Below are positions 1-63,522 of a stretch of 64,000 nt of DNA, piece by piece; position 1 is the stretch's first letter, and the number at the start of each line of letters is the position of its first letter. A model generated the notes under the pieces. It was not told the DNA's origin, ran no database searches, and was given only the letters and a program-made list of their open reading frames with translations. The stretch spans positions 13,973 through 77,972 of the IMG/VR virus record IMGVR_UViG_3300013105_000004. The stretch is one strand, 5' to 3'. This stretch comes from a virus. Its lineage: Duplodnaviria; Heunggongvirae; Uroviricota; Caudoviricetes. The position numbers and the translations under genes are program-made.

Positions 1-96
1 GTGGAACGCTTCGAGGTCGCCTAAAAGCGCCGCAGGCGGGCCGCAAAAAATTTTTATGTGCCGGGAGTCCCGGCTTTTCAACCAAAGGAGAAGAAA

Positions 97-636
97 ATGA
101 GTGAAATTAACATGACCGCAATCGCGTACGCTTCCGGCTTCATGGTTGCCGCGCACGCGGGCCAGAAACGGAAATACACGGGCGAGGACTACGCCGTGCA
201 CCCGAAGCGTGTATGCGAGATTCTAGACGCTCACGGACACCGTGACATGGACGTGCTGGTTGCGGCACTACTGCACGATACGGTCGAGGACACGCACATC
301 ACGCAGGAACAGATCATCGAGTATTTCGGCAACGACGTGGCCGTCCTCGTGGGCTGGTTGACGAAAACGGAGTGGGATGCTCCAGCGCCGCCTCGTGCAG
401 AGCGCAAAGCGTTTGAAATCTCTCGCCTGAAGGAAGCCCCGGCCATCGTTAAGACGATCAAGCTGGCGGACCGATACGACAACCTGCCGTCCGTCATCGA
501 GCACGACCCGAAATTCGCTCCCGTCATCGTTGCGGAGACGCGTGAGCTGCTGGACGGAGCCCTCGTCGGCGGTTGCCCGGTATTGTGGGGTAAGCTGGAC
601 GAGATTGTCCGCAAATTTCAGCAACAAAAGGCTTGA
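97..636 (+). CDS. HD-domain (p)ppGpp/alarmone hydrolase-like protein (RelA/SpoT HD, small alarmone hydrolase type)
   Basis: HD motif region ...VHPKRV...LLHDTVEDT... typical of RelA/SpoT/Mesh1 hydrolase domain; RBS AAGGAGAAG 6 nt upstream of ATG at 97 (ORF track starts earlier at 58). Confidence 0.75.
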   Translation: MSEINMTAIAYASGFMVAAHAGQKRKYTGEDYAVHPKRVCEILDAHGHRDMDVLVAALLHDTVEDTHITQEQIIEYFGNDVAVLVGWLTKTEWDAPAPPRAERKAFEISRLKEAPAIVKTIKLADRYDNLPSVIEHDPKFAPVIVAETRELLDGALVGGCPVLWGKLDEIVRKFQQQKA

Positions 637-2316: not shown

Positions 2317-2559
2317 GTGGATGTCGATGAGCTGAAAATCAGGCAGCGAGAGGCCGATGAGTTCTGCGTAGCGCACCTTATGGAGTGTTGCCGGGAACTC
2401 GTGGAGTGGTCAAGAACTGGCATACTCTGCGAAGGTAAGGTGCGTAAGCTGGCTACCATGTTTGCACATTGCTCGGACAGTGAGATGACGCAGTTGCGCA
2501 TCGCTGAACGTACCGTCCAGATGGCAGCGGTTGAACTCGTAGGCTTGAGAGGGATTTGA
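2317..2559 (+). CDS. hypothetical protein (80 aa, GTG start)
   Basis: ORF immediately after rtcB stop; RBS AAGGGAGCG upstream of GTG. Confidence 0.45.
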   Translation: MDVDELKIRQREADEFCVAHLMECCRELVEWSRTGILCEGKVRKLATMFAHCSDSEMTQLRIAERTVQMAAVELVGLRGI

Positions 2560-2768
2560 TGCGACTGCTACTGGCCCTGCTGGTAGTGTTGCTTACGGGC
2601 TGTGGCGGAGGGAATGTTCCTCCGTCCGCCTGCCACTACGAGCCTGTCAACATACAAGAGCTGCGCAGGGAATGTCACCCGGTCGGGAACGACCCTTGCG
2701 CTTACGTAACAATGGACGAATACACGTACAAGGCGGCGAACGTCGTGTGCGAAGGAGAAAAGAAATGA
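2559..2768 (+). CDS. small lipoprotein (signal peptide + lipobox LTGC)
   Basis: N-terminus MRLLLALLVVLLTGCGGG = type II signal peptide; RBS GAGAGGGA. Confidence 0.6.
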   Translation: MRLLLALLVVLLTGCGGGNVPPSACHYEPVNIQELRRECHPVGNDPCAYVTMDEYTYKAANVVCEGEKK

Positions 2769-2956
2769 ATGTGAAATTGGCTGCGAAGGCCGTAACATAT
2801 ACGGTAGCGTTGATGGTAGCGGTTGCTATCTGCATGCTGCTGATGTTTTGGACGAAAGGTTTGTTCGCAATCCTGTTCGTTTTCGGTTTCGTGACGTGGT
2901 TCATGTACGTAACGCTGGAACGGCGTGAACGCATGAAAAAGCGGAGGTTGTCATGA
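2765..2956 (+). CDS. small membrane protein (2 TM)
   Basis: internal ATG with RBS GAAGGAGAAAAGAAATG; hydrophobic segments. Confidence 0.55.
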   Translation: MNVKLAAKAVTYTVALMVAVAICMLLMFWTKGLFAILFVFGFVTWFMYVTLERRERMKKRRLS

Positions 2957-3036
2957 TCGGCGTCGTATTCGCGTTCCTGCTGGGTTGCGTACTCGGCTTC
3001 AGCCTCGGCGGACTGTTCGAAGCGGGGAAGAAATGA
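2953..3036 (+). CDS. putative 27-aa hydrophobic peptide
   Basis: ATGA-overlap with previous gene, RBS GCGGAGG; MIGVVFAFLLGCVLGFSLGGLFEAGKK. Confidence 0.3.
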   Translation: MIGVVFAFLLGCVLGFSLGGLFEAGKK

Positions 3037-3206
3037 ACGCTGTCAACCACGGCGGTTGGAACGTAGAGTGGCTTACCAAGGACGGGCGTGGATGGATTCA
3101 GTTCGCTGGTCCGTACGAAGATAAGCGGGAAGCGAAGCGTGTCTGCGATGCATGGAAAATTACCAGCCCGAAGATTGAGTTCCGGGTGTACGAAGAGTTG
3201 ACATAA
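3033..3206 (+). CDS. hypothetical protein (57 aa)
   Basis: in-frame ATG within ORF 2985..3206, translationally coupled. Confidence 0.45.
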   Translation: MNAVNHGGWNVEWLTKDGRGWIQFAGPYEDKREAKRVCDAWKITSPKIEFRVYEELT

Positions 3207-3217
3207 AGGAGAATTAG

Positions 3218-3451
3218 ATGAACAAACTGAAAGAAATCGCAACCGTAGCATTGGGGCTCATCCTGATGAATGACTTCACCCGCTTCCTGTTCACGGGACT
3301 GGCTGCAATCGCTGCTTTCGCTCTGCTGGTGTTCCTCGTCATGACGTTCAAGGTAGTAGCGTTCCTCTTCTTCTGGGGTATGGCGCTGGCGTTGGGCGCA
3401 GCAGTGGCGATGGCCGTGGGCTACATGGTCTGGGCCATGATCGAATCATGA
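3218..3451 (+). CDS. membrane protein (77 aa, 2-3 TM)
   Basis: RBS AAGGAGAATTAGATG; strongly hydrophobic. Confidence 0.6.
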   Translation: MNKLKEIATVALGLILMNDFTRFLFTGLAAIAAFALLVFLVMTFKVVAFLFFWGMALALGAAVAMAVGYMVWAMIES

Positions 3452-3615
3452 ACGGGCTACCCTACAAGGACACGTTCGCTGCGAAGGGTAGCGAACTCTT
3501 CCGTGCACTGACGGAAGGCCCGGAGAAAGACCGGGCGAAGGCAGCTAAGGCTGTTTACGATGCAACCACGGAACGTATGTACGCTCTGCTGAAACCAAAG
3601 GAGAAGGTATCATGA
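3448..3615 (+). CDS. hypothetical protein (55 aa)
   Basis: ATGA overlap with previous and next genes; not in ORF track (<60 aa). Confidence 0.35.
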   Translation: MNGLPYKDTFAAKGSELFRALTEGPEKDRAKAAKAVYDATTERMYALLKPKEKVS

Positions 3616-3938
3616 CAAACTACAAATTCGAGGTAGGACAGCGAGTCCAGATTCACGGACTGCCTGATTTCTCCGCCGACTGCATCTACAACGGCATGGA
3701 AGGTACGATTGTATCGCTCCCCGGTTTCAACCCTATTGCGAAGAAAGCGTATGCCGTCCTCATCGACGGCCGTGGCATCGAGCTTGCTATCGATACGTAC
3801 CTCCGACTCGCTCCGCCGCAGGACCGTAAAGACCTTGACAAGAAAACGTCGTGGGCAGAGTTCGATGCGACCACTGGCTACCGTTCCATCCGGTTCCGTC
3901 GTTCCAATCCGGGCGTGTCCGGGGACACGGATTATTGA
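3612..3938 (+). CDS. hypothetical protein (108 aa)
   Basis: RBS AAGGAGAAGGTATCATG. Confidence 0.55.
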   Translation: MTNYKFEVGQRVQIHGLPDFSADCIYNGMEGTIVSLPGFNPIAKKAYAVLIDGRGIELAIDTYLRLAPPQDRKDLDKKTSWAEFDATTGYRSIRFRRSNPGVSGDTDY

Positions 3939-3941
3939 CGT

Positions 3942-4142
3942 ATGGCCCAAACCAAGGAGAAATACGAATACGAGGCTCACACCTTCGACCTCCGGGTCGG
4001 AGGGAAGCAATGGTGTACTGGCTGTGGACTCGTCGGCCTGAACAACCCGTTCACCGACTGGGCCGTACGTATGGGTTGCAACCATCGGCTCCATCCCTCG
4101 TACGATAACAAACGCTACGAGCTTACCAAACTTTTCGATTGA
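3942..4142 (+). CDS. hypothetical Cys-containing small protein (CxxC)
   Basis: RBS CCAAGGAGAAATACG... ; CTGCG motif. Confidence 0.5.
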   Translation: MAQTKEKYEYEAHTFDLRVGGKQWCTGCGLVGLNNPFTDWAVRMGCNHRLHPSYDNKRYELTKLFD

Positions 4143-4339
4143 AAGGAAAACATGCTAGCTTCCCTATTGGCTCGCCTCCGCGAGCTTTTCAGGAACGACA
4201 GGATGCCGCCTACCGGCATGGCTCCCGCTTGAGTCCGCTCAAAACGTTCCGGCCCAATGGGCATAACATTCCTCTTGCCCGTCTCCATCCGGGTGTTCCA
4301 TCCGGGGCTCACGCCGACCTCGTACCGATGGAACCTTTC

Positions 4340-4366
4340 GCCCCGCCTCGTGTGGGGCTTTTTATT
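4340..4366 (+). terminator. Rho-independent terminator (GCCCC-loop-GGGGC + TTTTTATT)
   Basis: GC hairpin followed by T-run ~200 nt downstream of last + strand early gene. Confidence 0.6.
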
Positions 4367-4382
4367 GCCCGAAACAATCGTA

Positions 4383-4412
4383 ACTCCTTGATTTTACTAA
4401 AAAAATTTTTAG
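4383..4412. other. AT-rich tract (ttttactaaaaaaatttttagaaat)
   Basis: sharp local AT enrichment adjacent to palindrome array; possible DNA unwinding element. Confidence 0.35.
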
Positions 4413-4659
4413 AAATACGGCCTCTTCCGCAACGTCCATCGCCAATGGCGAAAATTTATCACGCCAATACGGCAACTTTTTCAAGCTTTCTCCTATGAAA
4501 CACGTTCTCGAAGATATGCTCGAAAAGGGTAAAAACCTCGGAGGGCGAGGGGATGGCTTAACCCGTCGCCGGGGGCGTGTTTTGGGGTCTGGAACGCACC
4601 AGAAATATCACAGAGGGGCCGTCAGGGGTCGGACAGGGGAAATGCCATCGGCACAGAGA

Positions 4660-5605
4660 ACGGCGCTATGGCCCCTCTAAACGCGTCTATGGGCCTGTGT
4701 ATAAAACCTAGAGGAACGTCTGGTCTGTGGACATCCGCCATACCAATGTGGACAACTTTCTAGGCCATTGGCCCGTGCATGCGCCTACGGCTTGCGTACA
4801 GGCCCGTAGAGGGCCGAACGATGTCCCGTTGATGTCCGCACTAGGGCACGATCTGTAAACGCCTCATAGCTCGTTTAAACGATTATAGTTCTGGCCTATG
4901 GCCTAGTGCCAGTCGATAGGGTTTGGCTGGGGCCAATGGCCCATGTATGCAATTTCCGTGCCAAGAAAGAGCGTTTCAATGTGCCGGGGCTAAACAACCC
5001 CGCCGCCCGTCTGTCATTGGATACACATATGAGCATGTCTAGTGCCATAGGCACAGGTTATTATGTACCTGCCCTATGGGCATGGCGTATGCCATAACCT
5101 ATGGCTATGTGCTATTAATTCGCCGTAGGCGATAGTATTTCTGTATGAGGGGATGATATAGGGATGATGAATAGATAGGACTAGGGCCAATGGCCTAGCC
5201 GTATAAGGGGCCAATGGCCCATGTTTGACCCCGTTCAAGGGGTCAAGGGGAGGGAAGAGGGACGAGGGGCCATAGGCCCATGAGATATGTTCTGTGCCTA
5301 TGGCACTAGAGTATGTTGATAACCGTTGCGAATAACAGCCCTGTATGTACGAATGAATAGAGGCGTTTAGAGGCGTTTAAACGGGCTCGCCTATGCCAGC
5401 GTACCAGCGTGATAGCGTTCGTTGAATGTAGGCCCGTTCTGATGCGTCCTAGGGCCATTGGCCCATGTAGCGCTACGTACCATATGCGGATGGGCCTTGC
5501 AGACAGGGCTGTATGAGGGGTCAAGTACCAGTACGTGAGTCATCAAGTATTGACTAAAAGAAATGGCCCGGTACAGCTTACGCCGTCCGGGCCTTTGGCC
5601 TATTC
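4660..5605. repeat. array of ~12 GGCC-(A/T)3-GGCC palindromic sites (e.g. GGGGCCAATGGCCCATG x2 identical 17-mers at 4928 and 5207)
   Basis: copies at ~4760, 4814, 4896, 4930, 5056, 5091, 5190, 5207, 5265, 5298, 5450, 5590; both orientations. Confidence 0.7.
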
Positions 5606-12332: not shown

Positions 12333-12536
12333 TTAGATGATGAATTCTTTATGATCTTTCACGCCGAACAACCCCGCATATTCCATCAATGCGGCACGTT
12401 GCGCTTTGGTGCGAGATGCCCGAATCAATGCGGACAAGCCACGCGCCACGGTATCAGTCATGTCTCCGAACGCATGGTAGATCGCGAGACGTTCAATTTC
12501 TTTGACTTGCGATTTGTTCAAGACTTCGATTCCCAT
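12333..12536 (-). CDS. hypothetical protein (67 aa), first gene of leftward early operon
   Basis: ORF. Confidence 0.45.
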   Translation of the reverse strand: MGIEVLNKSQVKEIERLAIYHAFGDMTDTVARGLSALIRASRTKAQRAALMEYAGLFGVKDHKEFII

Positions 12537-13128
12537 TTTCTACTCCGTCAGGTGATAAATTCGGAATCGCTATTTCTAACGATTCCTAGTTTTATCAACT
12601 GTGCTAGCGAATCATCACGATTGGCTAGTGTGATGCGGATCAACGGCACGCTTCCCAGCGTTCCTACCCGCCCAAGGGTACGCTTCCCAGCGTTCCCCGT
12701 GATTATGCCTAGTGCGTCCTCTTGAACGGCTATGACATCATTGTCTTACTGATGAATTGTTATAGAGCAGACTTATCGGCGCCCCCGCATTTGCTTTGTC
12801 CCGTGCTATCCATCTAGAGGCATCCGCCACTTCGCACGGGGTTAGCTCCTATGGCTTTGCCCCATCTCACTAGTAGCGTTCTGTACTAGTGAGACTCCAT
12901 TCTAAGGGCTGATTTAGGGATGCGCAATCCCTTTTCGAAAATAATTTGTAACAGGGATTCGGGCCAGTCCGTGAGCCCAAAAGGAAAAGGCGCGCACGTG
13001 CATGCACAGGCGTACGCGCACGCGTAGCAAGAACCGTGCCAAGGCCGATTTTCGGATACTGTGTTTTTATACAGTAAAACGCCGTAGAGACGTTTTTCGG
13101 GCATGGTTGATATGGCGGGCTAGGTCAC

Positions 13129-13918
13129 TGTGGATAACTCAATGGCGCCCCCTTAAAACGCGTTTAAACGCTATGCCATTGTGGATAACTTTTGCCCAAA
13201 ATCATGCGTTTTCGGGGTTGAGCATGTAAATCAGCCTGTTTATTTCTGTGAAATTTACATGAAAACCGCGTCACAATGGACGAGTTATCCACAGGCGATT
13301 CCGTGTTTTCCCTTTAAAATCAACAACTTGAGTCTTATACAAGAGCACATTTCAGTCTTATATAAGACATAGGACTACTCTTGTATAAGAGTGCTATGTA
13401 GGAAACATTTCGTTCTATCGTAGCAACATGGCACAGGTATTGCATAGGCAAGTAGCGTGCCAGTTAGCACTACTTACCACACTACGCCGGGACGGCGAAC
13501 TAAGGGACGCGGCGTCACATTCCGGTATGGCTCGTGCGCTGATACAGTGGGCATTCTGGTATGCGTGCCAGATGTAAGAAGCGTTACTTATGGGCAATGT
13601 AGCCCATCGGCCGACTATTGCCGAAAGGAAAAGTATTGCTAGGTTGCTAACACTACGTACGCCGGACGGCATCGCGTACTTTGCTATCGATTCCACCCTA
13701 GCGATAGGATTCGTTGTTTGCTATCGGTTCCTAGCAGTCGGTAGAAGATAGCGCTTTCCTATCGGCTGGCGTTATATGATAGGCGTTAGGCTATCGCCTG
13801 TGGATAACCTGCCGTCAGAGCAACATTGTGACCGAACGACCGTGCTATTTGACAAGTTGTCCACAGAACGGTCGTGCTTTTCCGTGGTTGTCCACAGGTT
13901 ATCCACATTTTATCCACA
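13129..13918. promoter_or_regulatory. DnaA-box cluster: perfect TTATCCACA at 13129-13137(-), 13180-13188(-), 13285-13293(+), 13799-13807(-), 13899-13907(+), 13910-13918(+); TTGTCCACA at 13857-13865 and 13888-13896
   Basis: six exact matches to the 9-mer DnaA box consensus plus two 8/9 matches within 800 bp of non-coding DNA. Confidence 0.7.
13333..13395. repeat. nested palindromes: CTTATACAAGAG inverted repeat pair flanking perfect palindrome GTCTTATATAAGAC
   Basis: read directly from sequence. Confidence 0.6.
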
Positions 13919-14000
13919 AAAAGTGCTTTTGAGCAACTTTCCACCGTTTCGGCCTGTTTCTGAGGGCGGATTGGCGGGTTTTCTCTTTAAGAAGAGACTC

Positions 14001-14080
14001 AAAAATTCCCCATCCCCTGTAGAAATTCTGACTTTTGAATTCCATATCGGATTTCGAAAACTATTCCACAAACGAAAACG
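14001..14080. repeat. ~80-bp direct repeat copy A (CCCCATCCCCT..TAGAAAT..TTTTGA.TTCCATAT.GGATTTCGAAAA..ACGAAAA)
   Basis: ~80% identical to copy at 16841-16920. Confidence 0.7.
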
Positions 14081-14131
14081 CCCCAGCAAGGGCCGGGGCG
14101 CGTTTTGGCGGGAAATTTTACGCGGGGCGCG

Positions 14132-15288: not shown

Positions 15289-16140
15289 TTATTTCTTCTT
15301 AGCTGGTGCGGGCGAGCGTTGGAACTGGCCTTTCGCCCCTCGCGTGGACTTCGTAGCTGGAGCCGGGTCAGCTTTCGGTTGCTCTGCCGGAGCTTGTGCA
15401 GCCGGTTTTGTCTCCGTGTCGTGCAACGCCTGTGCAGCCTGTGCGAGCGGATCGGAGAACCCCGTCACCTGTGCCAGCATTTCCTTGCGTTTGCGCAACT
15501 CTTCTTGCGACTCGCGTTCGATCTGCTGTTCGAACTCCGCCGTCAGTTCCTTGCACGCCTGTTTCGTTGCCTCGTAATCCGTGGTAGCGTTCTGGATCGT
15601 GGCCGTCAGTTGTGCCATGTGTGCGTTCAGTTCCTTGATGCGGCGGAACATGGCAGCGCTAGGAGGTTCGTTAGGATCGACAGGAGCGGGCGTAGGAGCC
15701 GTCGAAGCAGGCAGTGCAGCCGGAACCTCGCCAGCCTTCGGCAAATCGCCTGTAGGGCCGCTAGGAGCGTTCTGTGCGTCGATGGGCTTGGCAGTACTCT
15801 TACGTTGCGTGGCCGGGGGTTGCTTGTCTTCGTTCACAACACTAGCCGGAGCCGTTGCAGCAGCCAGTACGTTAGGAAGCGGACGCGACGTACGCGGCAT
15901 ACGGTGCGTGATGCGGATCACCTGATCTTGCTTGCCCGTCGCTTGCTTGAAGCGTTCCATCAGGACGCGCTCGTCGTCAGCGGACAGGGGCGAGGTCATC
16001 TTGTAGTAGTCCAGCGGCATGAACTCCGGTTTGCCGGTGCCCCTCCACACTTGAATCTTGTTACCGTTGATCGAATCGCGCAGGAAGACGACCGGAGCTT
16101 GTTGTGCGGGGTCGAAGCGGCAGAGGATGTCGGTAGCCAT
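15289..16140 (-). CDS. hypothetical protein with Pro/Ala-rich linker and C-terminal coiled coil (283 aa)
   Basis: start MATDILCRF with RBS AAGGAAC; antisense ORF 15319..16170 discounted. Confidence 0.6.
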   Translation of the reverse strand: MATDILCRFDPAQQAPVVFLRDSINGNKIQVWRGTGKPEFMPLDYYKMTSPLSADDERVLMERFKQATGKQDQVIRITHRMPRTSRPLPNVLAAATAPASVVNEDKQPPATQRKSTAKPIDAQNAPSGPTGDLPKAGEVPAALPASTAPTPAPVDPNEPPSAAMFRRIKELNAHMAQLTATIQNATTDYEATKQACKELTAEFEQQIERESQEELRKRKEMLAQVTGFSDPLAQAAQALHDTETKPAAQAPAEQPKADPAPATKSTRGAKGQFQRSPAPAKKK

Positions 16141-16840
16141 GATGTAGTTCCTTATAAGGGTTTGCCCTGAAGGGCTTGGTGAACACAAGGTTTAACTGTT
16201 GCTTGCGTCCGTTGTTGCAGTGGACAGATCGAAGTTTATACCTAGTGAGGAAGATTGCAAGGGGTGAAATCAATCGTACAGCCAGTTTTTGATAAAAATA
16301 TGATAACAACGTTGTGACGATACAACAGAACACAAAAATAAAGTTTGGTTCACACCCACGTAACACTTCCTTCGTCCTATCTGTCCTACGTCGCGTAGGT
16401 TCGCTCCTACAAATCAACGAGTTACGTAAGAAACGAGGTAGCACTACTTGCATATCGATATGACAGGAGCATTACATATTTACTATCTTTGTTACGTAAA
16501 GATGGATATGCGTACAGTATTTTCAATCGTGCGGCATGCAGGACGCCACGGTTTCGTGTAAAGTGAGAAGTGGGTGGAAGATTACCTGTACTCAGAAACA
16601 CGGATTTTCTGCTTAAAAGTTGTTCAAAAAGCTAGGAAATTTAAGGTTTCCTAGCTGCTGCATTGTCTAAACGGAGGAAAACTAGCGAATACGTAGTGAA
16701 AAGACAACATTGCTTATAACATTTCTTATGAGAAACATCATAGGGGAGGGAGTTGCTTTACCTAAACATTTGATGTATTGGTAGCAACTCCTATGTAGTT
16801 GTTGATGTCAGTAGAGCTACCTATATATAAGAAAGAAGTA

Positions 16841-16920
16841 AAATTTTCCCCATCCCCTACAGAAATCGGGTATTTTGATTTCCATATTGGATTTCGAAAA
16901 TCGTCCGGAGACGAAAATAA
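16841..16920. repeat. ~80-bp direct repeat copy B
   Basis: matches 14001-14080. Confidence 0.7.
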
Positions 16921-16996: not shown

Positions 16997-17314
16997 ATGT
17001 TTGACAAGGCCCAACTGCAACAACAGATCGACATCCTCAAGGAAGTGAAGGAACTGCGCCAAGCGCAAAGCAACGATTCGCCGTACGTTTGCGACAACAT
17101 CAACTGCCAACTGGAGTACAACACCACGGACGCTGGAGTGGCGATCTGCGATGACATCAGCAAGTACATCGATAATCATTTTGGCGTCCAGAACTGGCTC
17201 AGCGACAAGAACGGCAAGCACTACGACAACTACGACCCGATTGTCGAAGCTGCACGGATCGAAATGATCGATACCCTCATCGCACGTTACAATGCACAAC
17301 TGGAGGCTGCATAA
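16997..17314 (+). CDS. hypothetical protein (105 aa)
   Basis: leader CAACCAACCGAAGGAGAGAACAATG. Confidence 0.6.
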   Translation: MFDKAQLQQQIDILKEVKELRQAQSNDSPYVCDNINCQLEYNTTDAGVAICDDISKYIDNHFGVQNWLSDKNGKHYDNYDPIVEAARIEMIDTLIARYNAQLEAA

Positions 17315-22337: not shown

Positions 22338-24101
22338 ATGGAAAACAAATGGGGCATCGACCTGTCGTATCCCCATAATTGCCAGTGTCCTCGCTGTGCC
22401 CGGAACGGTCGGGATACGGCGAAGGACAATTTGCAAGTTTATGGCGAGGGCAAAGGGGCGTACTGTCACGCGTGTGAGTTCACCATCCTCAGTGACGAAG
22501 AAAGAGAAGCACGCGGCATTGATGATGAAGATGAAAGCGAGGACGAAGTGAGTACGAAAGAACCATTAACTAAGGAAGAGAATGAACAGATCAAGACATA
22601 CACCGGCATCAAGTCGAAGGGCTGGCGTGGCATCAAGGACGACACCAACAAGTTCTTCGGCGTCCGCTACACCTACGACGAAGAGACTGGTGAACCGGAC
22701 GCACAGTACGTCCCTACCACAATCGGCGGAAAGCTTGTCGGATACAAGGTGCGACAGTTCCCTAAAGACTTCAGCGGTCCCGTTGGAGTTGTTGGCAAGG
22801 ACTGCGACCTCGTGGGGCAATTCCGGTTCCCCAATGGTGGCCGTGTAGTCGTCATCGTCGGCGGCGAGGTAGACCAACTGTCGGCCTACCAAATGCTGGC
22901 GGAGTACCAAGAGTCGAAAGGCTACGATGCTGTCCCGGTCGTGTCCCCAACTGTAGGTGAAGGTGGTAGCGTCAAGCAGATTCAGGCGCAGTACGAATGG
23001 TTCAACAAGTTCGACCGCATCATCATCGGTTTGGATAACGACGAAGCGGGCGAGAAGGCCATGCACAAGTACGCGAAGGTACTGCCGAAGGGTAAAGTGT
23101 ACGTCGCCAAGTGGTCCCGTAAAGACCCGAACGCGATGTTGCAGGCAGGGCTGGAGAAGGAGTTCGTCAACAACTACTTCAAGGCCAAGCCGTACACGCC
23201 TGACGGTATCGTGGGATCGAGCGGGCTGGGCGATAAGATTCGTGAAGCTGCCGGGATGAAGAAGATTCCGCTGCCTCCGTTCATGCACAAGCTGCAAAAG
23301 ATGATGGCCGGGGGCTTCCCGCTCAAGACGATCATCAACCTCGGCTCCGCATCCGGCACCGGCAAGTCCACCATCGTTGACGAGATGACGTACTACTGGA
23401 TTTTCAACAGTCCGTACAAGGTAGGTATCGTTACGCTCGAAAGCGACAGCGGACAGTACGGTACGAAGATTCTGAGCCGACACGTCGGACGGAAGATCGA
23501 CCTGATCGAAGACGAGACGGACAAGCTGGCATACCTCGACTCCGACTACGTTCGGGAGAAGGAAAAAGAGCTGTACTTCATGCCAGATGGTACGGACCGC
23601 TTCTATCTTATCGAGGACCGTGACGGTGGCCTTGAATCGATGAAGGCGAAGATCGAAGAGCTGATTATCGCTTGCGGTTGCCAACTCATCATTCTGGACC
23701 CGTTGCAGGACATTTTGGACGGTATGACGAACGAAGAGCAAGCTGTCTTCCTGAAATGGATGAAGGGCATGCTCAAGTCGCACGACGTAACGTTCATCAA
23801 CGTCAACCACGTCCGTAAGAGCGGTGGCGGACAGAAGGCCAACTCGACTGGTGCAGACCTGTTCGAAGAGGACATGCAAGGTAGTTCGTCCATCTTCAAG
23901 TCGGGCGCTTGCAACCTGTTGTTCACTCGCAACAAGGAAGCAGAGGATGAGATTGAAAGAAATACTACCCGGATGAAGGCCAGCAAAATCCGTTGGACTG
24001 GTAAAACAGGTGTTGCAGGGGAATACTACTACTCAAACGAAACCCACACTATGTGGGACAAGGATGATTGGCTTTCGAAGAACGGTACAAAAGAGTTTTG
24101 A
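22338..24101 (+). CDS. primase-helicase (T7 gp4-like: Zn-ribbon + TOPRIM + DnaB-like helicase)
   Basis: CQCPRC...CHAC zinc ribbon, TOPRIM DNDEAG, Walker A GSASGTGKST. Confidence 0.85.
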   Translation: MENKWGIDLSYPHNCQCPRCARNGRDTAKDNLQVYGEGKGAYCHACEFTILSDEEREARGIDDEDESEDEVSTKEPLTKEENEQIKTYTGIKSKGWRGIKDDTNKFFGVRYTYDEETGEPDAQYVPTTIGGKLVGYKVRQFPKDFSGPVGVVGKDCDLVGQFRFPNGGRVVVIVGGEVDQLSAYQMLAEYQESKGYDAVPVVSPTVGEGGSVKQIQAQYEWFNKFDRIIIGLDNDEAGEKAMHKYAKVLPKGKVYVAKWSRKDPNAMLQAGLEKEFVNNYFKAKPYTPDGIVGSSGLGDKIREAAGMKKIPLPPFMHKLQKMMAGGFPLKTIINLGSASGTGKSTIVDEMTYYWIFNSPYKVGIVTLESDSGQYGTKILSRHVGRKIDLIEDETDKLAYLDSDYVREKEKELYFMPDGTDRFYLIEDRDGGLESMKAKIEELIIACGCQLIILDPLQDILDGMTNEEQAVFLKWMKGMLKSHDVTFINVNHVRKSGGGQKANSTGADLFEEDMQGSSSIFKSGACNLLFTRNKEAEDEIERNTTRMKASKIRWTGKTGVAGEYYYSNETHTMWDKDDWLSKNGTKEF

Positions 24102-60285: not shown

Positions 60286-63200
60286 TTATCCACAATGGTA
60301 CGTGCACGCAATCATCTTAACCTCGTCCGGGGACGAGAATGTAACGCTTTCACGGGCCTTTGCTACTGTGTAATTTCTGAGAATATCATCGCCTTGGCGC
60401 ATCCCTTTACCCGGTGTGCTTGATGTCGTGATGTAGTCGCCCGCTTCAATATCCCCATTTTCACCGCAGACATTAACCTGCCCCTCTCCCAACGAGTTGA
60501 TAATCCCGCGTCTATACTTACTTGCGATTTCGTCAAAGTCATCACACGGCCTTCCTTCTAATTGTGGCCCTTCTAGCAGAAGGAAGGTTGAGTTGTCTAT
60601 CAAGGCCGCTGGAGGATTAATAGAGACAAGATCGATGGCCCTAACAAACACTCCAATCACATTCTTTTGACAAGGCACAGACGAAACGCCAATGGCTGCT
60701 ATCGTGTTGGATACATTCGAGCGCCTAACTACTTCAACGTCTACCATGATGTCTCCGATTTCCGGCTCTGATGAGTCTTTAAGCAGCAACCCGTCGTGGG
60801 AGCCGGTAAATGGGCCGTAGTTTGGACCGCTTCCTGTGGCGTAAAAGTCATACCCGTTGGAAGCTCCTACCACACCCTCCGCCCCGTACGTTCCGTTTGT
60901 GCATTTGAGCGCATCAGTCTGAGAGTATGCGTACCCCCTGATACTCGGAGTTCCGCCTTCGCTCCACGCCCTGACGGCGGGCACACTGGGATAGTCGGAA
61001 TTGTCAGCATCAACGTTACCAGCTTGAATATTGTCAATCCATACCAGTCCCCCGGCTTGAATCTCGACAGCCCTTCCTGAAGGGGTATGCCCGGTCCCAG
61101 CCTCGAATGTAACACCCTCCAACGTCCCAGCCGATACCTGCCCTGCATTGACAGTTCCTGCGTAGACTACGCCAGCAGCTAACGTTCCCGCTGTAATCTT
61201 GGAAGCGGCTAGATCGGAGATGTAAGTACTCCCAATTGCCCCAGAAGAAATCAGCCCGTTAATATTAGAAGCCGTGATCTGGCCTGCAACGTCCCATCCG
61301 AGTGTTGCACCCCTAGTTGCATTATCTTCCGGTTTACCTGTTCCTGAGATTGAACTCCAAACGTTTACGCTAGAAGCTGCCACTCCATTTACAGTTCCCG
61401 TTACGTTTCCAGCAAACGCTACGTTCGCACTTGGGCGGTAAGGGTTTTCAGCAGCCATAGAAGGCTTTACGAGTGTAGACTTAATAACCCCGGCAGAGTT
61501 GATATCTTTATCGACCGACCTGTAAGCCAGCACTCCGAACGTCGTGTATAAGTTAGCTGCAACACCGAACAAGATAAACGCCCGCTTATTAGCTGGAACA
61601 GTGTAAACTGTTTCAGCCGCTACAGACGTTCCGAACGTATACGCCGAACTAGATGCAGACTGGTAGACGTAGATTTGAAATCCGTCAATGTCCCCTTCAG
61701 TTCCAGCCCACGCCCATTCAAATGAGATGTCGGCCGATCCATCTGTCCGCAGCGTGTGATCCACTGCTGAACCGTCAGATAAGATAGTAGGGGCAGTAAT
61801 TGCCGCACCGTTGCGGTCGTTGGATGCATTGAAGTTCGTGGCTGCTGTTGCTACTGTGTCTGCTGCTACACCGGATACTAGGGTTCCAGATGGGGCTCCT
61901 ACGGTAGACGATGCGACCCACGCCCCGGCGATCTTCTGATACAGCGTGGAGTTGTCTGTAGCGTAGTAAAAGTCCCCATTACTTCCGGTCGGACGGGATA
62001 GCAGAATACCTTGCGTGGTCGCGTTAGCTGTCGCATTAAGTGCACCCGAGTACCCGAGCCCTGTTATAGTTACAGCTCCGCCACCCGCCCCGGACAGCGT
62101 TCCGTTGCTAGACAGCGAAATTGCCGAGTTGAGCGTGCCAGCAGCAGCGTACGCTGGGTTCAGCGATGTTCCGCTGGAAAGGATCGTGTTTCCACTTGAA
62201 TCCTTAATTGTGATCGCCTTCATCGTAGCGTTGCCGCTCGCGTCTACAGTGAAGTTTCCATTGGCACTGCTAATTGTCCCGGAGACATTCAGCGTTCCCG
62301 TGTTAGTTGTGATAGCCGACAAACTTCCGACCTTCAGGTTGCTAAGGTAAGGAACACTCCAGACAGTCGTATTTGAAATCGGGTTGTACAAACCGTTGGA
62401 CTGAAACACAGCCTGCCCTGCTGCTGCTGTTGGCACTGTCGTGGTCCACGCACGCGTCTCTCCCCATGTTCCCGTTGTAGGCAGTGTTGTTCCTGCTGTC
62501 GTAGCTGTCGCTGGAGTAAGGTTAAGACTGCTACCATCAATCAACGTGTATGCAATTGCTGCTGATCCACCATTCAAGGCCATGTAACCAATTGCGGATA
62601 CGGTTGCTGTAGTCCAGTCAATGCTGCTTGTCGTCGCACCTGTCGCGTCAAGCAACCCCACACTCGCTTCATACAACGTGTAACCAAGCGCTGGAGCGTC
62701 CGTTTTGTTTTTCGTCCAGCCGGTTGCAGGAACCGTGTTGTAAGTGCCTGTAGCCCACGTCCACGTTGCTGTACCAGTCGTTGTAGGGGCTGTGGCGGCC
62801 CATTGGTATGCTCGTGCTGTAGCCGTTTTCACGCCCGGTGCACCCGTAGCGCCTGTAGCCCCGTTCTGCGAGATTGCTGACATCGTGGCACCAGCCGTGT
62901 ACGTGATATCAAGCGTTTGCACGCCGGATGGTGAACTCACAGATTTTTGAGTCACCCACAACTGAATCCCCGGCGTCCCCGGATTGGTCGGTACAGAGAT
63001 GAACCAGTTGTCAGTCCCCACGTAAGAAGTGTTCGCCCCTGTGTTCCACGACAACGTAGAAGTCCCCGTTGGGAGCGCTGGTTGCGCCGTAGACCACTTG
63101 TAGAGGTAAGCCGTGGCATACTGTGCACCCGCTGGACCCGGTTGTCCAACGGCTCCGTCTTGCACCTTCGAGATTACCTGCGTTGCTGTATACGTTTGCC

Positions 63201-63522
63201 CTAGGTCTGTAATACTTGCTGTCAGAGTGAACGAATCAATCTGCATATTAGCAAACGTAAGTTCTGCACTATTGCCGTTTGTAGTCAGCGTTACTCCGCC
63301 TGCCCCGGTGGGGACGCCAGTAGAGAACGTTACCGTGCCACCGCCGATATTAACAGGGGTCGCACGGATATTGATCTTCAATGGCGTAGGGCTTCCATCT
63401 GTTCCTACGTGGAAGAATGGCGTATCAACTGCCAGCACGAGGTATTTATTCGCACGCGGATCGACAGAGCGTTGTGCTGCTTGAAGCATTACATCACGGT
63501 CGTTCTGAATTGTGACTGTCAT
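60286..63522 (-). CDS. very large tail fibre/tail spike protein (1078 aa)
   Basis: Thr/Gly/Ala/Ser-rich repetitive beta-structure composition; C-terminal globular domain with Cys. Confidence 0.6.
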   Translation of the reverse strand: MTVTIQNDRDVMLQAAQRSVDPRANKYLVLAVDTPFFHVGTDGSPTPLKINIRATPVNIGGGTVTFSTGVPTGAGGVTLTTNGNSAELTFANMQIDSFTLTASITDLGQTYTATQVISKVQDGAVGQPGPAGAQYATAYLYKWSTAQPALPTGTSTLSWNTGANTSYVGTDNWFISVPTNPGTPGIQLWVTQKSVSSPSGVQTLDITYTAGATMSAISQNGATGATGAPGVKTATARAYQWAATAPTTTGTATWTWATGTYNTVPATGWTKNKTDAPALGYTLYEASVGLLDATGATTSSIDWTTATVSAIGYMALNGGSAAIAYTLIDGSSLNLTPATATTAGTTLPTTGTWGETRAWTTTVPTAAAGQAVFQSNGLYNPISNTTVWSVPYLSNLKVGSLSAITTNTGTLNVSGTISSANGNFTVDASGNATMKAITIKDSSGNTILSSGTSLNPAYAAAGTLNSAISLSSNGTLSGAGGGAVTITGLGYSGALNATANATTQGILLSRPTGSNGDFYYATDNSTLYQKIAGAWVASSTVGAPSGTLVSGVAADTVATAATNFNASNDRNGAAITAPTILSDGSAVDHTLRTDGSADISFEWAWAGTEGDIDGFQIYVYQSASSSAYTFGTSVAAETVYTVPANKRAFILFGVAANLYTTFGVLAYRSVDKDINSAGVIKSTLVKPSMAAENPYRPSANVAFAGNVTGTVNGVAASSVNVWSSISGTGKPEDNATRGATLGWDVAGQITASNINGLISSGAIGSTYISDLAASKITAGTLAAGVVYAGTVNAGQVSAGTLEGVTFEAGTGHTPSGRAVEIQAGGLVWIDNIQAGNVDADNSDYPSVPAVRAWSEGGTPSIRGYAYSQTDALKCTNGTYGAEGVVGASNGYDFYATGSGPNYGPFTGSHDGLLLKDSSEPEIGDIMVDVEVVRRSNVSNTIAAIGVSSVPCQKNVIGVFVRAIDLVSINPPAALIDNSTFLLLEGPQLEGRPCDDFDEIASKYRRGIINSLGEGQVNVCGENGDIEAGDYITTSSTPGKGMRQGDDILRNYTVAKARESVTFSSPDEVKMIACTYHCG

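Follow-up and report, generated by a model that had tools for sequence, protein, structure and literature searches.

The untranslated repeat region of phages T5 and BF23 has been described as oriC-like and was proposed to act as an injection stop. Phased consensus DnaA boxes in both orientations, an adjoining AT-rich segment, an IHF-type site and nearby promoters are found together in bacterial oriC and in DnaA-box origins of plasmids and phage-plasmids such as P1 oriR. The datA and DARS2 loci of Escherichia coli also combine DnaA boxes with an IHF site in non-coding DNA and are not origins. Transcription-activated phage origins (lambda ori/pR, T4 oriF/oriG, the T7 primary origin and lactococcal c2 ori) are served by sigma-70, phage-modified or phage RNA polymerase promoters and have no DnaA-box arrays. 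Sigma-54 promoters of the glnAp2/nifH type employ upstream enhancers and IHF, and the sigma-54 holoenzyme requires an ATPase activator. How replication starts, and how the first minutes of infection are timed, is not known for most lytic phages that have a T7-like replisome and lack a phage RNA polymerase.

The locus described here belongs to a lytic phage with a genome of ~91 kb. The window, that is, the whole stretch of DNA analysed, is 64 kb long, and 82.4 kb of the ~90.7 kb were covered from the same public contig. The phage encodes a gp4-like primase-helicase, PolA, an ATP-dependent DNA ligase, a UvrD-like helicase and a tape-measure protein, in agreement with the sequence-only reading, which had credited it with its own primase-helicase and polymerase. 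The control region is bounded on one side by the terminator of the upstream leftward genes and on the other by the leftward early operon, whose first gene has its start codon at 12536. It sets the main early operon apart from a 2.5-kb gene block (16601-14132); the strands of the surrounding genes were set by conservation in relatives. Open reading frames within the region are broken by stop codons or have only fragmentary matches in relatives, while the flanking genes are full-length and stop-free. The region is best explained as a conserved landing pad on which host factors assemble ahead of the early operon, and it probably serves as a host-dependent replication start or an early-infection switch.

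Relatives were retrieved via the ligase gene, and none were found via the neighbouring 198-aa protein. The control region and 24 kb of the genome had no DNA similarity to any of 50,697 deposited phages, and a search of bacterial genomes aimed at host identification returned no relatives. An Rfam search of the whole window yielded one tRNA only, with no known RNA family in the control region. The features of the region are listed in Table 1.

Table 1. Sequence features of the control region, in order of position in the window.
Feature	Coordinates	Strand	Remarks
Whole control region	12537..14131	.	1.6 kb, non-coding; motif blocks kept in the 9-sequence alignment
Conserved hairpin at 5' end of early transcript	12865..12894	-	Most helix pairs held through two-sided changes
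Sigma-70-type early promoter	12899..12953	-	UP-like A/T-rich tract, -35 TTGCGC (12927-12922), 17-bp spacer, -10 TAGAAT (12904-12899)
GC-rich alternating purine-pyrimidine hairpin, then T-run	12975..13025	-	Directly downstream of the 13041-13027 element
Sigma-54-type element TGGCACGGTTCTTGC	13027..13041	-	Toward early operon; left box cluster 92-248 bp upstream
Perfect DnaA box, left cluster outer	13129..13137	-	92 bp upstream of the 13041-13027 element, same orientation
Perfect DnaA box, left cluster	13180..13188	-	83% column identity across relatives
Perfect DnaA box, left cluster inner	13285..13293	+	In 16-nt perfect inverted repeat with 13793-13808
IHF-consensus site AATCAACAACTTG	13318..13330	+	Between box 13285 and the palindromes; consensus kept in relatives L121-L124
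12-bp palindrome TCTTATATAAGA, three copies, 23-bp spacing	13333..13390	.	Within the 80 bp of highest AT content in the region
34-bp palindrome with two face-to-face sigma-54-type -24/-12 elements	13429..13462	.	TGGCACAGGTATTGC on + (13429-13443), TGGCACGCTACTTGC on - (13462-13448)
CTATCG/CGATAG short repeats (GCTATCG-type), five copies	13683..13797	.	Upstream of box 13799; kept in relatives L121-L124 and L127
Perfect DnaA box, right cluster inner	13799..13807	-	Invariant in 9/9 aligned genomes
8/9 DnaA box TTGTCCACA	13857..13865	+	93% column identity; relatives switch between TTATCCACA and TTGTCCACA
Three-box tandem	13888..13918	+	TTGTCCACA at 13888, TTATCCACA at 13899, TTATCCACA at 13910
73-nt conserved element	13988..14060	+	Second copy at 16828-16900; copies 78% identical
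Strong intrinsic terminator	14078..14101	-	10-bp stem with 8 GC pairs, T-run

Six exact copies of the consensus box TTATCCACA and two copies of the one-mismatch form TTGTCCACA occupy 790 bp (13129-13918). The sequence-only reading had counted six perfect and two 8/9 boxes in this segment, placed them in non-coding DNA in both orientations, and pointed to a pair spaced by 2 bp (13899-13918). The exact-match positions confirm the orientations and the pair, and all boxes fall inside the 12537-14131 gap, the reading frames of which are not kept in relatives. Its view that exact boxes are rare is also correct: the expected number is 0.35 per 64 kb (the mean of 100 dinucleotide-preserving shuffles), and none of the 100 shuffles reaches the observed seven. 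The only other perfect copy in the window is at 60286, so that the 82.4 kb of available genome hold seven perfect boxes, six of them in the control region. The boxes form two clusters ~500 bp apart, with the outer boxes pointing outwards and the inner boxes facing each other. Boxes 13888, 13899 and 13910 follow an 11-bp register with 2-bp gaps. This tandem in the form GTTATCCACAGGTTATCCACAG was found in many bacterial genomes, and the 11-bp tandem form GTTATCCACAGG of the phage boxes is the same as that in many diverse bacterial genomes; because the pattern is present in many phyla, it gives no pointer to the host.

The boxes are conserved in related phages. Eight related metagenomic phages have 38 perfect boxes between them; every one falls within the syntenic gap, and ~140 kb of flanking sequence contain none. 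In the alignment of relatives, box columns are 76% conserved, compared with 52% for other non-coding columns. The more distant relative L130 retains the right-hand box pattern in the form of one-mismatch boxes. Judged from this conservation and from the tandem form shared with bacterial genomes, it is strongly supported that the boxes are functional host-DnaA sites. A chance cluster, or a piece of bacterial oriC acquired passively and without function in the phage, could be imagined, since tandem boxes of this form are frequent in bacteria; nothing further speaks for it. The shuffles stand against it, and so do the eight diverged relatives, in which the boxes are kept while the spacers between them diverge and gain insertions. 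Because of these conservation data, this explanation is effectively refuted, and we consider it extremely improbable. The proposal of the sequence-only reading that the cluster is a DnaA-dependent origin or a DnaA sink stands in part: conservation supports the boxes as host-DnaA sites, and both functions are putative.

The AT-rich stretch and palindromes reported near the boxes are indeed present, and the 80-bp windows of lowest GC content start at ~13300. This low-GC segment and the conserved IHF consensus are situated directly beside box 13285; the segment itself consists of palindromes separated by ordinary DNA. The IHF consensus has eight matches in 64 kb, one of them in the control region. 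The palindrome TCTTATATAAGA has no other copy in the window, is present in 8/8 close relatives, and was also found in an unrelated contig (L034) beside boxes and a sigma-54-type element. The trio of palindromes is a candidate unwinding element or a set of candidate protein-binding sites. At the other end of the region, the terminator 14078-14101 insulates the control region from the upstream leftward genes, and it is probably bidirectional because its A-run and T-run are symmetric.

Putative promoters of two types are present. Scans of the region for sigma-70 promoters and terminators gave counts not above those in shuffles, and because of this promoters were called only where they are conserved in relatives. 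The sequence TGGCAC-N5-TTGC with the exact -24/-12 spacing occurs six times in the window, compared with 0.23 expected, and three of these occurrences are in the control region. Positions outside the search pattern also fit the sigma-54 consensus: a pyrimidine precedes TGG in 36/44 cases, a purine follows TGGCAY in 44/44, and A or T follows TTGC in 40/44. The same is true for the flanks of the 13041-13027 element, which is kept in all relatives including L130, and at least one of the two elements of the 13429-13462 pair is kept in 8/9 family members. The sigma-70-type -10 box is present in 8/8 aligned genomes as TAGAAT, CATAAT, TATAAT, TATTAT or TAATAT. Downstream of it, most of the 10 helix pairs of the hairpin 12865-12894 covary (9/17 predicted pairs overall). 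The sequence-only reading mentioned neither the sigma-54-type elements, nor the location directly ahead of the early operon, nor the published precedent of T5, for which comparable boxes have been argued not to form an origin.

The hairpin 12975-13025 (-18 kcal/mol, z = -1.5) includes a terminator-like site at 13008-12991, and its GC tract and T-run are conserved. By sequence, the transcript from the 13041-13027 element seems to stop at ~40-50 nt, before the genes. Such an end, set by a conserved hairpin and T-run, is easier to reconcile with a primer or an activating RNA than with an mRNA.

Similar to promoters of the glnAp2/nifH type, the elements combine -24 GG and -12 GC with consensus flanks, an array ~100-300 bp upstream and an IHF-type site. 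In contrast to these promoters, DnaA boxes take the place of the upstream sites of a known enhancer-binding protein, a search for an activator gene gave no hit, and two of the elements overlap face to face. Searches with tblastn (using E. coli sequences) and PHROGs, and with Pfam on the longer ORFs, identified no enhancer-binding protein, RpoN or DnaA homologue in the phage. The enhancer position upstream of the sigma-54-type elements is taken by DnaA boxes or palindromes.

The pairing of boxes with this promoter type recurs in other phages. DnaA boxes 100-300 bp upstream of a sigma-54-type element were found in 43 retrieved loci that make up 17 sequence clusters, and 32 of the loci are outside this phage family. 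In contigs selected by the promoter-type motif alone, 88 of 90 pairs have the box upstream of the element, and the distance is mostly 100-300 bp, which indicates that the boxes and the sigma-54-type promoter work as one unit. In all cases, the module heads small genes of the early type. Beside tandem boxes of bacteria, coupling to a sigma-54-type element is rare (2/120 vs 11/120).

The strict polarity and distance of the boxes, the recurrence of the coupling and the constant position ahead of early-type genes are what would be expected if DnaA gated early transcription. The clusters would then be the enhancer-position element of the sigma-54-type and sigma-70 promoters, acting on RNA polymerase directly or through an adaptor or activator, so that early genes or a regulatory RNA would read the DnaA-ATP level of the host; replication would start elsewhere. 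Lambda pR is an example of a promoter that DnaA stimulates by acting through RNA polymerase, and one of the T5 box groups is located between divergent pre-early promoters. However, we know of no case of DnaA activating the sigma-54 holoenzyme, and to our knowledge DnaA has no counterpart of the GAFTGA-type contact loop of enhancer-binding proteins. The lack of a recognised enhancer-binding protein gene in the phage, the apparent end of the 13041-13027 transcript before the genes, and the normal sigma-70 promoter that already serves the operon also speak against this possibility, which we hold only tentatively.

Our first choice is that the control region is the replication start site of the phage, which we regard as plausible, with a probability of about 0.35. 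Although the replisome is T7-like, no genes for an initiator, DnaA, a helicase loader or a phage RNA polymerase were recognised in 82 kb by tblastn, Pfam or PHROGs. Further points in favour of an origin are the density and 11-bp phasing of the boxes and their confinement to the syntenic gap in relatives, the low-GC segment and IHF consensus beside box 13285, the enriched sigma-54-type elements with boxes upstream of them, and the short transcript predicted for the 13041-13027 element. We infer that DnaA and the sigma-54 holoenzyme would bind at the locus, and that unwinding, priming and the start of replication would occur there. DnaA-ATP of the host would oligomerise on the phased boxes, and bending by IHF would help to destabilise the adjoining AT-rich or promoter DNA. 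Local transcription from the coupled promoters could then open the DNA or provide a short RNA, a mode of activation known from the origins of lambda, T4 and T7. Finally, the phage primase-helicase and PolA would take over.

The likeness to bacterial oriC and P1 oriR extends to phased boxes in both orientations, the adjoining AT-rich segment, the IHF-type site and the nearby promoters. Of the hallmarks of oriC, whose architecture the sequence-only reading saw in the locus, the boxes, an AT-rich patch and an IHF-like site are there and the others are not. A simple pattern test detected no DnaA-trio, defined as a run of at least three TAG/TAA-type trinucleotides, on either strand of 12537-14131; no 13-mer-type repeats were found in the control region; and GATC is depleted rather than clustered, with one site in 1.6 kb compared with 3.6 per kb window-wide. 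Unlike oriC and P1 oriR, the locus is not flanked by a dnaA, dnaN or Rep gene, lacks the iterons of a known Rep protein, and is hosted by a virulent phage with its own replisome. Neither the flanking genes nor the others matched Rep or initiator families, and the palindromes and CTATCG repeats correspond to no assigned binding protein. The locus resembles transcription-activated phage origins in that a promoter is placed beside a candidate unwinding element in non-coding or early DNA and a short non-coding transcript is plausible; it differs from them in the sigma-54-type promoters and in having a DnaA-box cluster as the upstream element.

Several observations count against an origin at the boxes. 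The gap at 16.2-17.0 kb, where the gene strands truly diverge, is richer in AT. The sigma-54 holoenzyme would depend on an ATPase activator, and the searches identified none. In T5, similar boxes are found in the injection-stop region and the origins were mapped elsewhere. Replication of T7 starts at a phage-RNA-polymerase promoter origin, and DnaA-box arrays need not be origins because T7-like phages carry them in terminal repeats. The GC skew suggested as a check by the sequence-only reading does have its global cumulative minimum at 13.0-14.9 kb, but we rejected it as independent evidence for an origin, since skew follows the coding strand throughout the genome; gene strand and one Pro/Ala-rich gene, which accounts for the offset of the minimum from the strand switch, are sufficient to explain it.

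Arrays of DnaA boxes at genome ends suggest another function. Cultured T7-like phages have DnaA-box arrays in terminal repeats, at the genome ends; Berlinvirus A7 and Klebsiella phage ZK1, both cultured, have 4-6 perfect boxes in the ~200 bp at the start of the genome, and in many metagenomic contigs a box array is found no more than ~100 bp from the end. If the control region were likewise near a physical end of the genome, DnaA, which is partly membrane-bound, could bind the first-entering DNA and pause or anchor injection, protect the end or mark a concatemer junction. T5 and BF23, with ~8 DnaA or near-DnaA boxes arranged as paired inverted repeats in the proposed injection-stop region, provide the precedent. 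Like the phage studied here, T5 is lytic and has an untranslated region on the kilobase scale that is crowded with direct and inverted repeats and palindromes, with the boxes in two inverted groups that include closely spaced pairs. In both phages this region is situated among the earliest genes, is conserved better than the neighbouring ORFs, and parts a gene block (here, the 2.5-kb block) from the early operon. In the distant relatives L129, L133 and L135, the contigs stop 0.8-3.6 kb upstream of the ligase gene, a position close to the control region on the map of the window. On the other hand, T5 lacks sigma-54-type elements, has only three perfect boxes in 12 kb and shows no DNA similarity to the phage studied here; tblastn with T5 A1, A2 and dmp against 82 kb gave nothing below E = 0.1. 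The T5 region is part of a 10-kb terminal repeat. Contigs of close relatives of our phage are permuted, that of the window itself ends elsewhere, and the T5 model is itself a hypothesis. We consider an entry or terminus function unlikely.

The boxes could also serve as a DnaA sink or modulator in the manner of datA or DARS. Eight strong sites per genome copy would titrate DnaA or shift its nucleotide state, and initiation in the host would be perturbed as the phage genome multiplies. The cluster of high-affinity consensus boxes beside an IHF consensus in non-coding DNA would be in line with datA and DARS2, and arrays of 4-11 DnaA boxes are common in unrelated phages. The likeness to the datA and DARS cores concerns the presence of boxes and an IHF site rather than the arrangement of the boxes, and the phage context and the coupling to promoters are different. 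A sink requires neither a fixed promoter geometry nor a conserved two-cluster layout, and the gain for a lytic phage is unclear; we give this function little credence.

DnaA-box control elements are widespread in phages and almost unstudied. A search of the literature on DnaA boxes with sigma-54 in phages, or on boxes in terminal repeats, surfaced only T5 and BF23. The present locus is a concrete conserved candidate that would combine sites for two host machines, DnaA and the sigma-54 RNA polymerase. If DnaA opens the origin, switches the early promoters or anchors the entering DNA, this would constitute a widespread overlooked host dependency, with a bearing on host range, phage therapy design and phage-host timing. 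We speculate further that in many phages DnaA-box arrays could be enhancers of sigma-54-type promoters, with DnaA, an AAA+ ATPase, or a DnaA-built complex in place of the enhancer-binding protein, and with a short transcript that primes or licenses replication or switches on early genes. This idea seems to us decidedly unlikely; if true, it would change the textbook rule of sigma-54 activation, tie infection to the initiation potential of the host, and define both a new route of sigma-54 activation and a new class of phage origins. DnaA-box arrays alone also occur in T5 and, at the genome ends, in cultured and tractable T7-like phages.

Two further observations concern other loci. Pseudomonas phage vB_PseuGesM_254, a distant relative by PolA, has an annotated Ori-Finder origin with DnaA boxes (PMC11512268). 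Like our locus, it is a non-coding gap near replication genes; it was rejected as a homologue, being an AT-rich tandem repeat with no perfect or clustered near-perfect boxes. Finally, the second copy of the 73-nt element is located just upstream of the rightward replication operon, and both copies are kept in position in the relatives.

The 64-kb window contains seven copies of the perfect DnaA box TTATCCACA, six of them in the non-coding gap 12537-14131, against a chance expectation of 0.35 per window in dinucleotide-preserving shuffles; none of 100 shuffles had seven or more. The six perfect and two one-mismatch boxes of the sequence-only reading were re-found, and both their coordinates and their description are correct. 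Boxes 13888, 13899 and 13910 keep an 11-bp register. The one-mismatch form TTGTCCACA is a plausible functional variant, because it is the preferred DnaA box in high-GC actinobacteria. The sole perfect box outside the gap (60286-60294) is isolated at the stop-codon end of a 1078-aa tail gene (60286-63522, minus strand) and is probably fortuitous.

The gene-strand map and the terminator position show that this 1.6-kb gap has a terminator on one side and the start of the main early operon on the other. By ORF comparison with relatives, every gene from 12536 down to 5391 is on the minus strand; these genes are small and early-type, and include one for an ArdA-like anti-restriction protein. A second leftward block (16601-14132) stops at the strong terminator, and a rightward replication operon starts at 16997. 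ORFs within the gap are broken by stop codons or have only fragment matches in relatives, where the flanking genes are intact. The 73-nt element and its second copy form a 78% identical direct repeat, both positions being conserved in relatives; the repeat brackets a 2.8-kb leftward gene block, and its second copy directly precedes the replication operon's TTGACA promoter. The TCTTATATAAGA palindrome has no other occurrence in the window and is present in all close relatives. A small hairpin, ACGCT-TCCC-AGCGT, is present twice in the early-operon 5' leader (12641-12696); in relatives it shows compensatory stem changes and a retained (A)TCCC loop.

Features of the control region, listed right to left in the direction of early transcription, followed by individual boxes and by box arrays in cultured phages
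Feature	Position	Strand	Remark
Terminator	14101-14078	-	terminator scan
73-nt element	13988-14060		only other copy at 16828-16900
Right box cluster	13799-13918		
Short CTATCG repeats			between right cluster and variable spacer
Variable spacer			between CTATCG repeats and 34-bp palindrome
34-bp palindrome	13429-13462		two face-to-face TGGCAC-N5-TTGC elements
Three TCTTATATAAGA palindromes			23-bp spacing; within the region's most AT-rich 80 bp
IHF-consensus site	13318-13330		conserved
Left box cluster	13129-13293		
Third TGGCAC-N5-TTGC element	13041-13027	-	
GC-rich alternating purine-pyrimidine hairpin, T-run			just after the third element
A/T-rich tract, sigma-70-type promoter			conserved; -35 TTGCGC, -10 TAGAAT
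5' hairpin			compensatory changes support pairing
First early gene	start 12536	-	
Perfect boxes TTATCCACA	13129, 13180, 13285, 13799, 13899, 13910	-, -, +, -, +, +	exact match
One-mismatch boxes TTGTCCACA (two)	13857, 13888	+	pattern match
Shigella phage A7 (L259, NC_048180.1)	18-150		box array
Klebsiella phage ZK1 (L260, OK625527.1)	19-190		box array
Lactococcus phage WRP3 (KM677185.1)	about 23072-23129		box-array match

Fifteen related metagenomic phage loci were retrieved via the ligase gene. In the eight closer relatives (ligase identity 68-76%) all 38 perfect boxes fall in the syntenic gap, likewise in two clusters ~500 bp apart, and ~140 kb of flanks contain none. Aligned with the window, box columns are 76% identical versus 52% for other non-coding columns; the right-hand cluster is close to invariant, and the inter-cluster DNA is divergent, with insertions. 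As the boxes are kept while the DNA between the clusters diverges, selection, judged from the alignment, is acting on the boxes themselves, and chance is an extremely improbable explanation. The DnaA sink that the sequence-only reading had offered beside an origin, that is, titration or modulation of DnaA, seems improbable. At the more distant locus L130 the right-hand arrangement survives, in boxes with one mismatch, and the left cluster is lost or degenerate; ligase-retrieved loci more distant than L130 have no boxes. In L130 (3300-3870) and another relative, L125 (about 4560-5400), the spacer has grown by an inserted ORF or by some 550 bp of additional DNA.

The pattern TGGCAY-N5-TTGC, a sigma-54-type element, occurs six times in the window (0.23 expected), three times within the gap, where it is conserved in relatives. 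Scored outside the search pattern, 44 elements near DnaA boxes have a pyrimidine preceding TGG (36/44), a purine following TGGCAY (44/44) and A/T following TTGC (40/44); as sequence, these positions fit the sigma-54 promoter consensus. Viral contigs picked only for two boxes 2 bp apart include several, among the matches listed, with arrays of 4-11 boxes and then at least one such element. In the reverse sampling, at least 117 contigs were fetched by the motif TGGCAY-N5-TTGCTACGCG only; among the matches listed, perfect boxes lay within 1.2 kb in 29 of 117 (~2 expected), and the box was upstream of the element in 88 of 90 pairs, mostly by 100-300 bp. The left cluster of the window lies 92-248 bp upstream of its third element. 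The pairing was found at no fewer than 43 partly related loci forming at least 17 DNA-similarity clusters; among the matches listed, an element stands beside tandem boxes at 11 of 120 viral loci versus, rarely, 2 of 120 bacterial-genome loci. In ~40-kb phages the module occupies a divergent gap between late genes (endolysin, terminase, portal) and small early genes. Judged by these motifs, the pairing is not peculiar to the window phage.

We consider it established at the sequence level that the gap offers host DnaA a conserved non-coding platform of candidate binding sites, and that this platform is physically linked, in a fixed polarity, to putative sigma-54-type promoter elements at the early-operon head. 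This placement is compatible with DnaA-gated early transcription, a tentative second choice; that the array would act as an enhancer of the sigma-54 promoter is rather unlikely. In two unrelated viral contigs (L037, 10194-10460; L097, 1660-1860), 5-7 sigma-54-type elements stand in tandem among or next to box arrays, too many for ordinary promoters, which suggests possible multi-copy binding of sigma-54 holoenzyme or another factor. In a 5.7-kb viral contig (L034, 1190-1310) the window palindrome GTCTTATATAAGAC lies between a box pair and a sigma-54-type element, in the order seen at 13285-13443 of the window.

The window belongs to a ~90.7-kb phage genome (public contig SRR7975608_96502) of which 82 kb was searched for genes. 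It encodes a gp4-like primase-helicase, PolA, an ATP-dependent DNA ligase, an RNA ligase, RtcB and a UvrD-like helicase, as well as ThyA, RNR, NAMPT and tail genes. Deposited phages give no DNA match; PolA is ~49% identical to that of the nearest cultured phages, Aeromonas phiA047 and Pseudomonas PAK_P3-like phages.

Our first choice, at a probability of roughly one in three, is that a phage with this T7-like replisome and without its own initiator or RNA polymerase would start replication here in a DnaA-dependent, transcription-coupled manner. We counted for an origin the consensus boxes, which are phased and occur in both orientations, the AT-rich patch with an IHF-type site, the nearby promoters with a likely short terminated transcript (predicted), and the lack of a recognisable initiator or phage RNA polymerase in the 82 kb, searched in part with approximate E. 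coli query sequences. The global minimum of cumulative GC skew does fall at the region (13.0-14.9 kb), as the origin proposal had anticipated, but the skew follows the coding strand genome-wide, deviating only at a Pro/Ala-rich gene (15.3-16.2 kb), and so gives no independent evidence for an origin. The gap has no DnaA-trio-like run and is depleted in GATC; the higher AT of the divergent gap at 16.2-17.0 kb was counted as neutral or against. An Ori-Finder 'origin' in the distant relative PseuGes_254 was rejected, being an AT-rich tandem repeat without true boxes.

The single real precedent in the literature searched is T5/BF23, whose untranslated repeat regions hold paired inverted repeats with about eight boxes of DnaA or near-DnaA type and were described as reminiscent of oriC. 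It was proposed there, without experiments, that membrane-bound DnaA stops DNA injection; the origins of T5 map to around the middle of its genome. A T5-like entry or terminus function is an unlikely alternative here: in a sequence scan T5 showed three perfect boxes over its first 12 kb and no sigma-54-type element, and the 82 kb searched of the window phage gave no homologues of A1, A2 or dmp. The remaining probability goes to functions that we have not thought of. BLAST of the metagenomic box arrays matched cultured Autographiviridae: the first ~200 bp of Berlinvirus A7 and of Klebsiella phage ZK1, presumably part of the direct terminal repeat, contain 4-6 perfect boxes plus variants and no sigma-54-type element; no paper on such arrays at these genome ends was found. 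By analogy with the T5 and T7-like examples, a DnaA-box cluster in a lytic phage is not necessarily an origin. The array was also matched by lactococcal 949-group phages (~130 kb), in a stretch without annotated feature. Since DnaA boxes are known from origins of phages and plasmids and from T5, this kind of element has been seen before. The literature searched seems to hold no description of the box density and conservation in this phage group, of the two-cluster layout or, above all, of the recurrent, polar coupling to sigma-54-type promoters in many phage lineages.

The gene at 15289-16188 (minus strand), whose C-rich coding strand distorts the GC skew locally, is highly conserved (82-88% identity in close relatives) and confined to this phage group; its product is modelled with a beta domain of ~80 residues, a Pro/Ala-rich disordered linker and a long helix, with no family or fold match. 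A second long non-coding gap (4680-5390), where the early operon ends convergently, is packed with GGCC(A/T)ATGGCC-type palindromes. Its three DnaA-type boxes are weak (TTATACACA at 4696; two of TGTCCACAG type near 4727 and 4747), and its minus strand carries a further sigma-54-type element (4963-4949). A resolvase-family gene and an HD-domain gene, preceding RtcB, adjoin the window start, and 16 minus-strand tRNA genes cluster 3.5-6.5 kb upstream of it (2438-5425 of the fetched sequence L258).
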